A stretch of DNA of 64,000 bases, taken from NCBI GenBank assembly GCA_035501555.1, contig DATJWA010000013.1:60276-124275 (forward strand). Reading direction: 5' to 3'. Made by a program: the position numbers and the translations under genes. Under the pieces are notes generated by a model. It had not been told where the DNA came from, searched no databases, and worked only from the letters and a program-made list of their open reading frames with translations. Of the stretch, positions 37,609 to 47,894 are shown piece by piece. Source of the stretch: Thermoplasmata archaeon (GTDB lineage Archaea > Thermoplasmatota > Thermoplasmata > Lutacidiplasmatales > UBA184). Position 1 is the first letter of the stretch. Every line of letters begins with the position of its first letter.

Positions 37609-37681
37609 GCCGCGGTGGCTCAGCTGGCAGAGCGGCTCCTTGGTAAGGAGCAGGCCGAGGGTTCAAATCCCTCCCGCGGCT
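37609..37681 (+). tRNA. tRNA-Thr (GGU)
   Basis: Hand fold: acceptor GCCGCGG/CCGCGGC, D-stem GCTC/GAGC, anticodon stem GCTCC/GGAGC with loop TTGGTAA, T-arm GAGGG-TTCAAAT-CCCTC. 73 nt. Confidence 0.85.
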
Positions 37682-39210: not shown

Positions 39211-39816
39211 GGCGAGGTCGGCTCGTCCACGGCATTGCCGCGTTCCCGATAGATTCGGCTGGCGCAGCGTCGACAGCGGCTCCGTTCGTCCGCCAAGTCG
39301 ATTCTCCACGATTCGAACGCGTTCCTTCCCCATCCCGAAACCACCCTTTTCCGAACTCACCGACAACCTCGGACGGGCCAGCCGGGCGGCTGGGGCTTTG
39401 AACCAATCGACGAAGCCCTCCCGCGGCTGATTTCCCTCGATTCCCTCGGGGCGAACGGGTGTGGAGGGACCCGAACCCTAGTGTCAGGGCCTCCTTGGGC
39501 GCTCGGTCGGTGACCTGACCGTACGGAGCGCGTCGACTCCTCTCCCCTCTCGGGGGAGGGAGAATCGCGGGCGCGGTCAGCGGGAGCGGGGGTTCCCACC
39601 CACTAGTGTGGCCGTCGGATACCATGTTTCCGTCAGAACACGGCGCCGGAGACATTCGTTCCAGAAGGAGTTGGAGCGACTCCCCTTCGGGTACCCTCAA
39701 TGGGCGACCTGACGACGGGAGCACAACCGGGTCGCGGGGTCCGAGCGCCGCCGCGCAGGACGAGCTCTTGATAAGTATCTGGCCCCCGTACGTTCCCTCG
39801 ATTTGGAAGGGCTTCG

Positions 39817-40503
39817 ATGGAAGCCGGATCTGACCACGCTCTAACCGGGCTGGCGTTCGCGGCGACGCCCATCGGGATTGCGCTTCTCTTGCTCGGGGCC
39901 TGGCTGTCTGGGATAGATTGCTGGAGCGGCCCGGTGGCCTTCTCGACGTGCCCCCTGTCCGACCTTGAGTACACGTTCCGTGCCGTACTTCTCTTCTCGG
40001 GCGGGATTGCCCTCGGACTGGGACTCGGCCTCCTTACGCAGATCATGGTCGAGAAGCGTCGCTTGGCCGGGCGTAGGGCGCAGCCAAGAGATGGGCCCCC
40101 CCGCGACACTGGCCCGCCGCCCAAGCGGTCGCCCCTGACCGTCACCATGGTTTGCGTTGCCGTCGCCGTGGCAACGCTCGTCGCACTCGTCGTGGTCCCT
40201 GTCCCCCAAGGGTTCACGATGCACGACGCGGCCATTTACGATCTCGAAACGGACTGTCCGGGGATCTATACTTCACCGGGCACGGTGGTCAGCTTCCATT
40301 GGTCTGCTGGGTCGTTCACGTACTTCTTCGTCGTGGGCTGTCCGGCTAACGAAGAGGTGTACGATGCCAACGGAACCAGCGGCTCGGGTTCCTTCATCTC
40401 CTCTGGCGGCATCTATGAGTTCGGTGGCTCCTGCCCGAGCTCGCTTTTCTGCGTCCCGGCTAACGTATCCGGCACCTACACAGGTCCAATCATCCCACCG
40501 TAA
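39817..40503 (+). CDS. Membrane-anchored Cys-containing protein (unknown)
   Basis: Three hydrophobic helices, then a ~110-aa Gly/Ser/Cys-rich C-terminal domain. No recognisable family. Confidence 0.35.
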   Translation: MEAGSDHALTGLAFAATPIGIALLLLGAWLSGIDCWSGPVAFSTCPLSDLEYTFRAVLLFSGGIALGLGLGLLTQIMVEKRRLAGRRAQPRDGPPRDTGPPPKRSPLTVTMVCVAVAVATLVALVVVPVPQGFTMHDAAIYDLETDCPGIYTSPGTVVSFHWSAGSFTYFFVVGCPANEEVYDANGTSGSGSFISSGGIYEFGGSCPSSLFCVPANVSGTYTGPIIPP

Positions 40504-40643: not shown

Positions 40644-41915
40644 GTGGGCTACGCGTCGGCTCCTCCCCTGTTTCGGGAAGGGAGACCCGCAGGTCGGGCG
40701 GCAGAATTAACGGCGGTCGGGCCGATGTCGGACGGGATGGAAGGGCGTCGAACAAGGAGAAGCCGGTTGGTCGCTCCCCTTCTTCTGGCCGGCACTCTGC
40801 TTCTCCTCTCGACCCTCTTTCTGGGCTGGTACACGATCAACCTGAACTCGGGGACCTCGGTCTACCACGAGACCTTCTACTCGACGGTCGTCCGGCTCTC
40901 GGGCTCCCAAGCGGGAAGTTCCTATTCTAACGCGACCTCCTACGTTTCGGTTTTTCTCGGCGACACCGGCATTCTGTATCTCACCGTCAGCGGGCTGGTG
41001 GTCGCCGGAGTAGTGGTCGGTTTGTTGGCTGTGTACCTCGTCTGGAAAGGGACCACCCAGAGACATCGGAAGCTCGTTCCCACCCTGGTGGCCTTGGTGG
41101 TCGCTTTCGCTCTGGCAGGACCCATGCTAGTTGGAGTGGTCCAGCCCGCAACACTCTGCCAGGGAGGGGGACCCCCGCAGAGTACCCCGCTCGCCGCATC
41201 GTCTCCGAGCCTCATGGCCGGGCCCTCCTCCAGCTGCTCGTGGGTCGTCGCCTCTCCTTCCCAAGGGGGAACCCTTTACGACTCCGGAAATGGTCCAGGG
41301 CCCCAGACTTCCTTCTACGGTTCCTCGAGCGTGGGGGGACAGCCCCTCACCTGGGGACCCTCCATCGGTTGGTTTGTCGCGGTCGTCGCCTCCACTCTCC
41401 TCATCGCGGGGGCTGCCCTCGATCTCCAGCAACTGGGAAGCTCTACGCGCCCTCAACTGGTGAGGGCCCGATTTGCCGCCCAGACCGGTCTGGCATCAGC
41501 TGGGCTCCTGGTGCTTACTGGGCTGCTCCTGTTCTGGTTCGACTCCCCAGCCTGGCCCTCCTACCAAACGATCCCGTGCGGCCTGATGAGCTGCCACCTG
41601 TATCCGTACAGCGAGATGCTCTCCGGATCTCAGGCCTTCGTCTTCGTCTGCCTCGTCGTCGCCCTGGTCGCGGTCGCGGCCCTCCCGAGATTTTGGGCTT
41701 TCGGAATCGGCACCGGAGCCCTCGCCTTGGTGGCCCTCTGGTTGCTGGCGGGCTCGTTCGGAGCCGCCGACACCCCGGGTGGGGCGTACGCCTGGGGGCT
41801 GGGATCCGTGTTCGTCGGCGGAGCTCTAGCGATTGCTGCTTCTATGGTTATCCGACAGACATACCGCCCGAAGCGCGGAGAGACTCGAATGGGAGCCTCA
41901 CCTCAGAGTTCATAG
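40644..41915 (+). CDS. Polytopic membrane protein (unknown)
   Basis: 8+ hydrophobic segments with Ser/Gly/Pro-rich loops. The start is probably downstream (MSDGMEGRR). Confidence 0.4.
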   Translation: MGYASAPPLFREGRPAGRAAELTAVGPMSDGMEGRRTRRSRLVAPLLLAGTLLLLSTLFLGWYTINLNSGTSVYHETFYSTVVRLSGSQAGSSYSNATSYVSVFLGDTGILYLTVSGLVVAGVVVGLLAVYLVWKGTTQRHRKLVPTLVALVVAFALAGPMLVGVVQPATLCQGGGPPQSTPLAASSPSLMAGPSSSCSWVVASPSQGGTLYDSGNGPGPQTSFYGSSSVGGQPLTWGPSIGWFVAVVASTLLIAGAALDLQQLGSSTRPQLVRARFAAQTGLASAGLLVLTGLLLFWFDSPAWPSYQTIPCGLMSCHLYPYSEMLSGSQAFVFVCLVVALVAVAALPRFWAFGIGTGALALVALWLLAGSFGAADTPGGAYAWGLGSVFVGGALAIAASMVIRQTYRPKRGETRMGASPQSS

Positions 41916-42450: not shown

Positions 42451-42750
42451 TTGGGCACTTATCCATGGGGGCCCGTTTCCATGCGGTCGGAGATGAGTCA
42501 AGCCACGGCGTTGCTCGTTCTTGTCTGCTTGATCATCGGGACGGTACTGGTGGTGACTGCTGACGAGGTCTTCCGTACCCCCACCTCCTGCGTGAGCCTG
42601 GAGGGGACGTGCACGCCTCCCCCCCTTCCATGGTCGACTCTAGTGGTGGCCGGCGTTTTCCTCGCGATTGGGATCGCTTCGTTCGCGGTGGGCGCACTTA
42701 ACCTGCTACGCTGCGTCCCTCGCATTCGCAAGGCCTCCGGGCAACCCTAG
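42451..42750 (+). CDS. Small 2-TM protein (unknown)
   Basis: 99 aa with two hydrophobic helices and a Cys/Pro-rich loop. Coding status uncertain. Confidence 0.3.
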   Translation: MGTYPWGPVSMRSEMSQATALLVLVCLIIGTVLVVTADEVFRTPTSCVSLEGTCTPPPLPWSTLVVAGVFLAIGIASFAVGALNLLRCVPRIRKASGQP

Positions 42751-42969
42751 CGGACTCCCCCGGGGTCGCCCTCGTGCGAGCGCCACCGACCGTCCCGGGA
42801 GTTCGTCAAGCGTGATGGATTGGGACCTCTGTATTGGGCCAGAAGCGGAGCGCCTTTCGTCCCGGCCTCCGGTCGATACGAAGGCCTTTCTCGCGAGCCA
42901 TTGCGAGGAGCGCGTCGAACGCCTCGGGAGTCAGGGGTGGCTTAATCTAACGGAGGTCGGTCTCGGGTC

Positions 42970-44910
42970 GTGGCCACCACCCGACGGCTCGCCGCCATCA
43001 TGTTCACCGACACGGTCGGCTACACCGCGGCGACCCAAGCCGACGAGGGGCGCACCCTCGACCTGCTCCGCCAGCAGGCGGAGCTGGTCCGGCCCCTGGT
43101 CGCCGTGCACCAGGGGAGAGAAATCAAGTCGACCGGGGATGGCTTCCTGGTCGAATTCGACAGCGCGCTGAAGGCCACGCAATGTGCGGTGAGCATCCAG
43201 CGGCGCATTCACGAGAGGAATGCGGAGGGAGGTCTCGCGCCCATTCGAATCCGGATCGGCATTCACCTCGGGGACGTCGTACAGAGTGGCGCGGACATCC
43301 TGGGTGACGCGGTGAACATCGCCGCCCGTATCGAACCGATCGCAGAGCCCGGAGGAATCTGCGTATCCGGCGCAGTCCAGGAGCAGGTACGGAACAAAAT
43401 CCCCGACAGACTCGAGAAGCTAGCACCGACGGCCTTCAAGGGGCTTGAGCTACCCATGGATGTCTATCGGCTCGTATTGCCGTGGACCGTCGGCGAGCGG
43501 GCTTCCGAGGACCACGGTGCCTCCCCGACCGACAAGAACCGGATCGCCGTTCTGCCGTTCGTGAGCATGAGCCCGGACCCGAACGACGAGTACTTTGCCG
43601 ATGGCCTTACCGAGGAGCTGATCGCCAACCTGGCGCTCGTCAAGGGGCTCAAGGTGATCGCCCGAACGTCGGTGATGGAGTACAAGAGGAAGGAGAAGCA
43701 CGTCTCGGCGATCGGAAAGGAGTTGGGGGTAGGGACCGTCGTGGAAGGCAGCGTTCGGAAAGCCGCGAACCGGATCCGCGTCACGGTACAGGTCATCGAC
43801 GTCGCGACCGAGGAGCATCTGTGGGCTTCGAAGTACGATGACACGCTCGACGACATCTTTGCGGTGCAGAGCGACATCGCGACGAAGGTCGCCGCGTCGC
43901 TCCCGAGCAATCTGGCTCCCACTCCGGCCCAGGTGCCGCCGCTCCAGGAGACCCGAGATATGCCGGCGTATCTCCATTTTCTCCAAGGGCAGGCCCTCGT
44001 TTGGCAGCGCGAGGAGGTCCCCATCCGACAGGCCCTGCGTTTCTTCGAGCAGGCGGTCGAACGCGACCCGAGCTTTTCCAGGGCCTACGCCAGCATCGCC
44101 CGGGCCTACAAACAGCTCGGTGAGGAGGGACTCATCTCCTGGTCCGAGGCGATCGTTCAAGGGAAGGCGGCGGCCGAGAGGGCCATCCGGATCAATCCCA
44201 ACTTGGCGGAGGCCCACGCCATGTTGGCGGAGCTGTCGTTCATGGCGGACGACCCCACCGAGTTGCAGGAGAGAGAGGCGAGGAAGGCCCTGGAGCTGAA
44301 CCCGAATCTCGCCGAGGCCCACGATATCCTGGGCCAGATCGCGGGAATCAAAGGAGACCTACGCTCGTACGTCCGATACATCGAGGAGGCGTATCGGTTG
44401 GACCCGCTCTCTCCGCCGTCGATACGGTACCTCGGAAGGGCGTACTGGCTGGCGGGCCGGGAGGAGGAGGCCCTGGAGCACTGGAAGAAGACGCTGCATC
44501 TCGACCCGATTACTTCCTACCACGGCCTGAGCGACTACTACATTGCCAAGGGGGACCTCGAAAAGGCGGCCGAGATGACGAAAGAGATGGAGAGAATCGC
44601 GCCGACGAATCGACTCACCTACCTGAAGCGCGGGTACCTCGCTGCCCTGCGGGGAGACCGGACGACCGCGATGGAGATGATCGCCAAGCTCGACGCGGCT
44701 CACGACAAAGGCTGGGTAACGTCCCCGTACGCCGGATTCATCTATCTCGCTCTCGGAGACCTAGACAAATTCTTCGACTACATGTTCGCCGCCGTCAAGA
44801 CCCACACACTCCCTTTGAGCACCCTCCTGTTCTCTCCTCTCTTCGTCGACGCACGGAAGGACCCCCGATTCGAACAGGTGGTTTCGCTCGACCGTCAGCT
44901 CAATCCGTGA
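42970..44910 (+). CDS. Class III nucleotidyl cyclase (CHD) - TolB_N-like - TPR multidomain protein
   Basis: CHD motifs FTDTVGYT, KSTGDGF and GDAVNIAARIE. A TolB-N-like segment (IAVLPFVSMS..EYFADGLTEEL...GSVRKA.NRIRV), then 6+ TPR/Sel1-like repeats. 646 aa. Confidence 0.8.
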   Translation: MATTRRLAAIMFTDTVGYTAATQADEGRTLDLLRQQAELVRPLVAVHQGREIKSTGDGFLVEFDSALKATQCAVSIQRRIHERNAEGGLAPIRIRIGIHLGDVVQSGADILGDAVNIAARIEPIAEPGGICVSGAVQEQVRNKIPDRLEKLAPTAFKGLELPMDVYRLVLPWTVGERASEDHGASPTDKNRIAVLPFVSMSPDPNDEYFADGLTEELIANLALVKGLKVIARTSVMEYKRKEKHVSAIGKELGVGTVVEGSVRKAANRIRVTVQVIDVATEEHLWASKYDDTLDDIFAVQSDIATKVAASLPSNLAPTPAQVPPLQETRDMPAYLHFLQGQALVWQREEVPIRQALRFFEQAVERDPSFSRAYASIARAYKQLGEEGLISWSEAIVQGKAAAERAIRINPNLAEAHAMLAELSFMADDPTELQEREARKALELNPNLAEAHDILGQIAGIKGDLRSYVRYIEEAYRLDPLSPPSIRYLGRAYWLAGREEEALEHWKKTLHLDPITSYHGLSDYYIAKGDLEKAAEMTKEMERIAPTNRLTYLKRGYLAALRGDRTTAMEMIAKLDAAHDKGWVTSPYAGFIYLALGDLDKFFDYMFAAVKTHTLPLSTLLFSPLFVDARKDPRFEQVVSLDRQLNP

Positions 44911-47415: not shown

Positions 47416-47894
47416 TAAAGATTCTCGAAGCCCAGCCGAGTTCGGTCGCCCCGAGGCGCACTTTGCAGGATCGATCGGGGGCGGTGGGCGATCCCCACCC
47501 GACTCCTAGTGGATGGATGCGCCCCGGGAGCTCCGCGCTCCACCGGGGATGTCCTCTCGGAACATGTCGGCGGACGGGGCGCCGAGGCCTGGGATCCCCC
47601 GGGAATTCGATTCCGCCGCCGATCAGGGCTGAACGCGGGAACCCACGGGTTCGGCGACTGGTCCTAGTCCCGGCGGCCTGACGGTCGGTCCACCTGGCCC
47701 GAAGGCCTTCGCGCCGATTCGCACGGGATGGAATAAGCGGTGCTTCAAGCCCCTCCCGCGGAGATGTGTCCGCCCGCCCCGATGCTCCCGTCCGCTGCAG
47801 GTCCTCCCCTGGGCGGGGTCGGTCCTTATGGGGGGGATGCAGCGTGGACTTTGAGGCCTCGTTCGGACTTTCGAATGTGGTGGGAGAGCGAAAG

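Follow-up and report, generated by a model that had tools for sequence, protein, structure and literature searches.

A predicted soluble sensor adenylate cyclase of a Thermoplasmata archaeon and its large multi-copy family in soil archaea

The described systems closest to the gene reported here include minimal adenylate cyclases of class III with a short-arm cyclase homology domain (CHD) of ~165 amino acids (aa), namely Ma1120 of M. avium (4wp8, 5d0g), the CHD of Rv1900c/LipJ (1ybt) and Silicibacter pomeroyi 3mr7. The CHD superfamily also includes the cyclases of antiviral systems, PycC of Pycsar and PucC of Pucsar; the latter systems rely on purine (cGMP) cyclases and are defined by a linked effector, either a cyclic-nucleotide-binding domain (CNBD) fused to TIR or a 3TM protein, or by fusion to a STAND NTPase (preprint 10.64898/2026.08.12.744502). 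Other cyclases, of the Rv0386 type, join an N-terminal CHD to a STAND module (AAA_16/NB-ARC) and C-terminal tetratricopeptide repeats (TPR), while a TolB-N-like alpha/beta subdomain followed by a helical or TPR bundle is known from the regulators CadC, in its periplasmic pH/cadaverine sensor domain (3LY7), and HilA/EilA, where it follows the DNA-binding region. Here, we describe a gene of a Thermoplasmata archaeon (assembly GCA_035501555.1) that combines parts of these systems in another way. It occupies positions 42970..44910 on the + strand of a 64-kb stretch of contig DATJWA010000013.1, hereafter the window, and its open reading frame (ORF), with a GTG start, encodes a 646-aa protein in which a CHD is followed by a TolB-N-like domain and a TPR superhelix.

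We find that this gene most likely encodes a soluble, cytosolic sensor adenylate cyclase, with a cAMP-making class III domain and a sensor module. Pfam recognised the cyclase domain at aa 8-141 (Guanylate_cyc, PF00211; 49.8 bits, gathering score 21.9) and, over aa ~350-540, a run of TPR_17, TPR_11, TPR_1, TPR_2 and other repeats that exceed their cutoffs. TolB_N (PF04052) remained below threshold at aa 189-283 (17.5 bits against a cutoff of 22.4), and the middle domain was found to have the TolB N-terminal alpha/beta fold. Thus an earlier note, made from the letters of the window, was right about the exact coordinates of the ORF, the CHD and the TPR, and the TolB_N domain that it had also named stays below the cutoff of the sequence model. 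An AlphaFold2 (AF2) model computed from 34 family sequences, with a mean predicted local distance difference test score (pLDDT) of 79.8, resolves the three domains delimited in Table 1. Its TPR region is all-helical (pLDDT 85-97), and the linker is disordered at aa 174-185 (pLDDT <50). Hydropathy revealed no transmembrane (TM) segment and the protein contains no Walker A motif, which places the cyclase in the cytosol and indicates that it is not a STAND fusion; likewise, Pfam gave no match to AAA or NB-ARC.

The GTG start is supported by the alignment of aa 4-10 with strand beta-1 of 3mr7 and by an in-frame TAA 21 nucleotides (nt) upstream, within the promoter box described below. Many gene callers choose instead a conserved internal methionine, Met11, yielding 636-aa models that would truncate strand beta-1. 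Long antisense and out-of-frame ORFs of up to 290 aa overlap the gene in 42.9-44.7 kb (for example 43450-44322 on the - strand); these are the usual shadow ORFs of DNA with ~65-70% GC and have no support as genes. The cyclase frame itself is not a chance ORF, given its match to 3mr7 (E 6e-31) and its thousands of homologues.

All the residues expected of an active class III enzyme are in place. The motifs FTDTVGYT, K53-S-T-G-D57-G-F and GDAVN116IAAR120IE provide the metal-binding D14 and D57, the substrate-binding K53, and the transition-state residues N116 and R120; the second substrate residue, D109, sits seven residues ahead of N116, and R95 would contact the phosphate. Among 96 CHDs of Thermoplasmata and Nitrososphaerales members from the related loci, D14, K53, D57, R95, D109 and R120 are kept in every one and N116 in 93. 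Where the CHD protein is 90-93% identical, identity at its 4-fold synonymous positions reaches only 46-60% (chance 0.34), so that the conservation of the protein reflects purifying selection. These observations support catalytic competence, as had been suspected from the metal Asp pair, the Lys and the Asn/Arg alone. The closest solved structures by phmmer were homodimeric adenylate cyclases, either bona fide enzymes or structural-genomics entries, namely 3mr7 (110 bits), Ma1120 (E 1.6e-17) and Rv1900c (E 6.5e-15), and Foldseek superposed the CHD on all three with a TM-score of 0.84-0.91 (normalised to the target), establishing the CHD fold. With these enzymes, only 27-36% identical in sequence, the window cyclase shares the fold, the metal Asp pair and the Lys/Asp substrate pair, and a head-to-tail homodimer is expected. 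It keeps the transition-state Asn that Ma1120 does not have (PMC4215837). The C-terminal partner domains also differ: Ma1120 has none or an N-terminal extension, and LipJ carries an alpha/beta-hydrolase.

As for the substrate, K53, D109 and A119 align in HMMER with the substrate positions altered in 5d0g, the KDA->EGY specificity mutant of Ma1120. In the wild-type enzyme, K101 and D157 make kcat/Km ~11-fold higher for ATP than for GTP, a preference that their mutation shifts; guanylate cyclases have Glu at the position of K53 and Cys, Ser, Thr, Gly or similar residues at that of D109 (PMC4215837). The Lys/Asp pair of the window protein is therefore the canonical adenylate-cyclase signature and predicts ATP as the substrate. 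The earlier note had proposed an alignment to reference CHDs at these two positions as a way to recognise a Pycsar-type cyclase, and the alignment returned K53 and D109, not the alternatives.

Many bacterial CHD paralogues are pseudo-enzymes. A dead CHD, or one acting as a guanylate or promiscuous cyclase, in a protein that would serve mainly as a TPR scaffold, is thus a reading to be weighed, and the residual guanylate cyclase activity of Ma1120-type minimal cyclases lends it some weight. We consider it very unlikely, since none of the seven catalytic and substrate residues has been lost, strong purifying selection acts on them, and K53 and D109 differ from the residues that guanylate cyclases carry there (PMC4215837).

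The remainder of the adenylate cyclase resembles a sensor. By Foldseek, aa ~190-510 match the periplasmic domain of CadC with a TM-score of 0.68-0.70 over ~322 columns, and the TPR region matches consensus TPR and OGT-TPR. Sequence similarity of the module to HilA/EilA (E 9e-19) and CadC (E 5e-9) is also seen in NCBIfam, at scores far below the cutoffs (67 against 589 for HilA, 35.5 against 400 for CadC). In CadC and HilA the output is an OmpR/ToxR-type DNA-binding domain, for whose winged helix we found no Pfam match in the window protein, where the output is the cyclase. The window protein therefore shares only the sensor module with these regulators. Unlike that of CadC, which is periplasmic, this module is predicted to be cytosolic, as in HilA, there being no TM helix, and its TPR region is about twice as long as the counterpart in CadC/HilA.

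Among soil archaea, the gene is one ordinary representative of a very large family that occurs in multiple copies. Nearly all scored candidates (7,981 of 8,000) were homologous at E<=1e-10; the top 120 are full-length and 63-98% identical, and all those with a name are called 'Thermoplasmata archaeon'. When the representatives of 50%-identity clusters were searched exhaustively, 36,731 proteins reached E<=1e-30, and many have a length of ~640 aa and match end-to-end. In reference contigs with one genome per species we located 257 stretches with relatives, and the best 78 loci are all archaeal, from soil and peat Thermoplasmata (59-78% identity) and from Nitrososphaerales/Nitrososphaerota (45-55%). 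We counted 2-8 copies in at least 20 of 51 assemblies, a lower bound because the counts come from the best 80 matches, and at 12 loci two or three copies lie within 10 kb. Soil Nitrososphaeraceae have likewise been noted to carry extra class III cyclases (PMC13577086). The archaeal setting, already assumed from the sequence, is confirmed by the Nop5 gene (PF01798) in the backbone of the window and by the named close homologues, which come from Thermoplasmata metagenome-assembled genomes (MAGs). Some giant relatives (P0121, P0124, P0138 and P0143) have 1,800-2,800 aa with 4-7 tandem TolB-N/TPR modules and may be either true multi-module proteins or fused gene calls.

Proteins of the same architecture occur in bacteria. 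The family matched 704 plasmid records, mainly of Rhizobium, Sinorhizobium and Bradyrhizobium, 268 of them with >=80% coverage and all below 60% identity; the best bacterial plasmid matches are 33-37% identical to the window cyclase. One of them, Rhizobium indigoferae WP_131647215.1 (plasmid NZ_CP140638.1), is collinear over aa 5-640 at 35% identity. The rhizobial proteins have the same domain order, the same catalytic signature and the same middle-domain motif, LPF.N.S.DP..E.F.DG.TE. They differ in being bacterial and often plasmid-borne, the archaeal copies having their own promoter box and non-AUG starts. They are annotated as 'adenylate/guanylate cyclase domain-containing proteins', with no defence annotation, and the literature that we searched holds no functional study of the rhizobial architecture; one family member is named 'class 3 adenylate cyclase/TolB-like protein/Flp pilus assembly protein TadD' in IMG. 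The fusion had been called typical of actinobacterial and proteobacterial signalling proteins, which holds for the proteobacteria; in actinobacteria we found similarity at the level of the CHD only (Ma1120, Rv1900c/LipJ).

Within the archaeal family, the three domains evolve at different rates. Mean identity is 75% in the TolB-N-like domain, 67% in the CHD and 49% in the TPR region, the fastest-diverging part, where identity falls to ~20%. The TolB-N-like domain, the most conserved of the three, contains many invariant residues and the motif LPF.N.S.DP.DEYFADGLTEELI, also found in the Rhizobium homologue. Moreover, the ranking of the domains reverses between relatives. Three of them (L073, L068, L075) are 87-89% identical to the window protein in the CHD and only 23-28% in the TPR region, whereas four others (L004, L013, L027, L003) are 64-65% identical in the CHD, 92-94% in the middle domain and 78-82% in the TPR region. 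In sliding windows, identity switches at aa ~160-190, the position of the disordered linker, and it flips in both directions. Such a rank reversal requires recombination between paralogues, and catalytic and sensor modules have been exchanged between them at the linker. The exchanges must be old, with high protein identity maintained by purifying selection, since 4-fold synonymous identity is down to 0.46-0.60 in the CHD and, in the middle domain, to 0.35-0.53, where chance would give 0.34 and backbone genes show 0.33. In one genome pair the CHD is 92% identical and Nop5 63%. A recent gene conversion might also account for a CHD that is ~90% identical and for the conservation of the promoter; with a 4-fold identity of only 0.46-0.60, we largely rejected this reading.

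The family also shares a promoter element. The GTG start of the window gene is preceded, at -29 to -19, by the exact 11-mer CTTAATCTAAC, which has no second exact copy in the window. Related loci totalling 1.27 Mb contain it 22 times, always <=45 nt ahead of the start of a family gene and nowhere else. AT content is highest at -28 to -24, and the box includes a small palindrome, TTA-N3-TAA. Since other genes of the contig carry differing TATA-like boxes at -27 to -38, the position of the box is ordinary and consistent with a leaderless or short-leader mRNA, and it is its sequence that is conserved in the family. That the box has been kept in paralogues with nearly saturated synonymous sites suggests a dedicated cis element or a regulon. 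Nitrososphaerales members have instead a TTTATC-type box, farther upstream. Start codons are almost always non-AUG: of the 68 Thermoplasmata genes 65 begin with GTG, and of the 29 Nitrososphaerales genes 27 begin with TTG. Altogether, these features suggest a (near-)leaderless regulatory protein of low abundance, and the box, together with the 219-nt gap upstream of the gene, points to independent transcription of the cyclase.

Considering these results, we propose that the cyclase would be transcribed alone from its dedicated TATA-like box, ~25 nt before a weak GTG. By analogy with class III enzymology, two CHD copies would pair head-to-tail and form two active sites at their interface, each of them built from the metal Asps of one chain and, from the other, the K/D and N/R pairs. 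The TolB-N/TPR module would bind a ligand or a partner protein and so set the geometry of the dimer and, with it, the rate of cAMP synthesis. Several points weigh against this picture. The Lys/Asp pair predicts, and does not prove, the use of ATP, and Ma1120 retains residual guanylate cyclase activity (PMC4215837). The regulatory role of the TolB-N/TPR module is assigned by analogy only, there being no characterised CHD/TolB-N/TPR protein, bacterial or archaeal, in the literature searched, and the leaderless mRNA is deduced solely from the position of the motif. Furthermore, no archaeal protein that synthesises, degrades or binds cAMP has been characterised, and cAMP itself has been measured in archaea (2023 review, PMC10249747). 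Finally, neither the window nor 1.38 Mb of related loci yielded a cAMP receptor or a phosphodiesterase; the search used a single CRP probe, E. coli CRP, which gave no phmmer hit at E<=1 among ORFs of >=80 aa in the 1.38 Mb, and this is a weak test.

The contrast between a CHD that holds ~90% identity and a TPR region that diverges to ~20% could also be read as the mark of a stand-alone, immune-like sensor. The hypervariable TPR would then recognise viral or other foreign proteins and the cyclase would raise a cAMP alarm for effectors encoded elsewhere, as a STAND-less analogue of the cyclase-STAND-TPR proteins that form 'immune clade 1' of the Pucsar preprint. Module swapping, the expansion into paralogues with frequent tandem copies, variable genomic positions and one close relative that adjoins a CHD-AAA_16-TPR protein would fit such a role. 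However, there is no STAND NTPase, no effector domain and no conserved effector neighbour, and PADLOC finds no system. In addition, the catalytic and TolB-N domains evolve unusually slowly, unlike immune cyclases, which have long branches according to the Pucsar preprint, rhizobial proteins of the same architecture carry no defence annotation, and diversification of the sensor is equally expected for environmental sensing. We therefore regard the immune-like sensor as very unlikely. The wider version of this idea, in which the family as a whole would be a diversified receptor repertoire, a near-invariant cAMP module with its dedicated promoter, recombined with hypervariable TPRs for innate-immunity-like or conflict sensing in soil archaea, strikes us as just as unlikely. 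The adjoining protein just mentioned is found in L084 (6213-9539), where a relative of 85% identity stands head-to-head with a 1108-aa STAND-type protein (Guanylate_cyc/AAA_16/TPR); cyclases of the STAND type are assigned to an immune clade in the same preprint (10.64898/2026.08.12.744502). The window cyclase resembles these CHD-STAND-TPR proteins in its N-terminal CHD and C-terminal TPR, and differs from them in having a TolB-N-like domain in place of the NTPase module.

The adenylate cyclase gene lies in a region that differs in composition from the part of the window before it. Directly past tRNA-Thr(GGU), GC drops from 0.71 (1-37.6 kb) to 0.65 (37.7-50 kb), and the 3' end of the tRNA is repeated further on. 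A tRNA border, a 3'-end direct repeat and a deviant composition are features of tRNA-linked islands; a mobility gene was not found, as no integrase appeared among the Pfam results for ORFs in 37.7-54 kb. The stretch past tRNA-Thr is thus supported as variable and integration-prone, and the accessory region of the earlier note proved to be a tRNA-linked, low-GC, non-syntenic stretch with an att-like repeat. The tRNA and the repeat at 39413-39438 bracket a 1.7-kb segment that contains only an AlkZ-like DNA glycosylase gene (GC content at third codon positions, GC3, 0.69) and has the look of an integration remnant that lacks an integrase. The weaker repeat listed in Table 1 was not recovered by a 22-mer search at <=3 mismatches.

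A cyclase recently acquired from bacteria, having arrived with a genomic island at the tRNA-Thr, would be in line with this setting. The abundance of the architecture on plasmids of Rhizobium, Sinorhizobium and Bradyrhizobium, the collinear Rhizobium protein, the 0.65-GC stretch with its att-like repeat and the fact that neighbours differ even among relatives of 84-85% identity would all agree with it. The plasmid matches reach just 33-37% identity, however, as opposed to 45-78% in the best 78 reference loci, all of them archaeal, and thousands of full-length homologues at 63-98% come from Thermoplasmata wherever they are named. Several paralogues are present per genome, and no integrase is encoded in 37.7-54 kb. 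The GC3 of the cyclase (0.82) matches that of the backbone genes Nop5 (0.85) and ECH (0.81), in contrast to AlkZ (0.69) and the upstream membrane ORFs TM1-3 (0.74-0.76); its low total GC is a consequence of amino-acid composition. Moreover, in the Thermoplasmata MAG locus L038 (122-4370), the same backbone order Nop5-ECH-tRNA-Thr(GGU) is followed after 236 nt by a family gene in opposite orientation, at the contig end. This member is 59% identical, close to the 62-68% of the backbone proteins, and is either a positional orthologue, after inversion and insertion, or the occupant of a shared hotspot. The recent horizontal acquisition that had been suggested is therefore not supported and very unlikely. 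Instead, the cyclase looks like a long-resident gene of an archaeal family, beside which AlkZ and the membrane ORFs were inserted later. An ancient transfer between domains may have taken place, and a bacterial origin of the architecture is plausible.

The three ORFs upstream of the cyclase, TM1, TM2 and TM3, do look like membrane proteins, as had been noted, and have no match in Pfam, NCBIfam or PADLOC and no cNMP-binding, TIR or PycTM domain. The earlier note had raised the possibility of a Pycsar pairing between them and the cyclase. In such a Pycsar- or Pucsar-type antiviral system, the TM ORFs would be pore-forming effectors, activated by the cyclic nucleotide on infection. Three small to medium TM proteins upstream on the same strand, a locus in a variable tRNA-linked region and a PADLOC match of the CHD to PycC are what could be expected of it. 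Run on the cyclase and six neighbours, however, PADLOC gave only this weak PycC match of the CHD (31 bits, E 3e-8) and no effector, so that of the two hidden Markov model checks that had been proposed, Guanylate_cyc was positive and the defence system was not detected. The PycC score lies below the 49.8 bits of Pfam and far below the 110 bits to 3mr7. The five flanking ORFs tested as adjacent effectors, TM1-3 together with orf103 and orf244, have no PADLOC or Pfam match, and thus TM1-3 none to PycTM or a CNBD. Solved PycC structures were not matched by sequence at E<=10 nor within the Foldseek top 50, the presence of PycC in the searched PDB set being unconfirmed.

The pocket of the window cyclase also differs from that of the Pycsar enzymes, whose clades carry the sets Y50/D94/R97, F100/R142/Q144 or F60/K104/F109 (PMC11224242) in place of Lys/Asp. 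The existence of purine cyclases in Pucsar systems (preprint 10.64898/2026.08.12.744502) counts in favour of a defence role, so that Lys/Asp alone does not exclude one. Intergenic gaps at the locus measure 219-606 nt; those of 263, 565 and 219 nt separate TM1 from TM2, TM2 from TM3 and TM3 from the cyclase, which has its own promoter box and a 470-aa sensor module of a kind not described for PycC. When 16 window proteins were searched by tblastn in 82 related loci with flanks of up to ±10 kb, TM1-3, AlkZ and CitMHS were absent from all of them, and relatives of 84-85% identity occupy three wholly different neighbourhoods without TM1-3. Unbiased clustering of 3,285 flanking ORFs yielded no conserved partner in more than 15 of 78 loci; the recurrent neighbours (NHL, methyltransferase, ABC, SRPBCC, NmrA) are generic and vary in position. 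Conversely, a pattern scan of metagenomes gave no relatives of TM2, and among 5.8 billion proteins TM2 has two partial homologues, neither near a cyclase. The co-occurrence of cyclase and membrane genes that had been proposed as a check thus fails from both sides.

With canonical specificity residues and no conserved linkage, the two outcomes that the earlier note had itself named as refuting, our data do not support Pycsar, and we see virtually no chance of an antiviral system of this kind. Despite the shared superfamily and the weak PADLOC match, the window cyclase has neither a CNBD-TIR or 3TM effector nor a conserved operon, carries purine/ATP-type residues and a large sensor module, and is nearer to signalling adenylate cyclases than to PycC. 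TM1-3 are neighbours only, which no test links functionally to the cyclase. The only sizeable TM2 homologue lies in L085 (3183-9603), amid hypothetical ORFs and a protein with a faint TrwB/VirD4-like match, a setting that resembles a mobile element and suggests an origin of TM1-3 from an archaeal element of this kind.

Table 1. Features of the cyclase gene and its surroundings, in window coordinates
Feature	Coordinates	Strand	Basis
Class III adenylate cyclase/TolB-N-like/TPR, complete gene (predicted)	42970..44910	+	ORF list, Pfam, 7,981 homologues, AF2
Cyclase homology domain, aa 5-169, minimal short-arm type	42982..43476	+	Pfam PF00211, phmmer, Foldseek, residue counts
Interdomain linker, aa 170-187, recombination breakpoint between catalytic and sensor modules	43477..43530	+	pLDDT, sliding-window identity
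TolB-N-like alpha/beta domain, aa 188-310	43531..43899	+	most conserved part of the family
TPR superhelix, aa 331-644, ~17 helices, presumed ligand- or partner-binding sensor	43960..44901	+	Pfam, AF2, Foldseek
TATA-like family-specific promoter box GCTTAATCTAAC, -30 to -19 from GTG	42940..42951	+	motif counts, AT profile
tRNA-Thr(GGU), left edge of low-GC variable region	37609..37681	+	ARAGORN; Rfam tRNA 69.6 bits; GC drop
att-like repeat of tRNA-Thr 3' end and flank, 23/26, 16-nt exact core CCCTCCCGCGGCTGAT	39413..39438	+	repeat search, alignment
Weaker tRNA-3'-end-like repeat, 16/18; possible outer boundary, tentative	47744..47761	+	repeat search, alignment
TM1, TM2, TM3 membrane ORFs	39817-40503, 40767-41915, 42481-42750	+	hydropathy: 3, ~8-9 and 2 TM segments

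Taken singly, the gene is an ordinary sensor adenylate cyclase, for which the idea of a defence system can be dropped. Sensor adenylate cyclases are a known kind of protein; what we add is the modular evolution and the shared promoter element of an archaeal family. The shared box, the weak GTG/TTG starts and the module exchange hint at a coordinated, low-level expression of the paralogue set, and make the family a natural example of how sensor-output proteins diversify. Large, catalytically intact and strongly constrained in two abundant lineages of soil archaea, it is a testable candidate for archaeal cAMP synthesis, and the chances are somewhat better than even that archaea have in these proteins their first bona fide cAMP synthases, acting together as a co-regulated sensory network.

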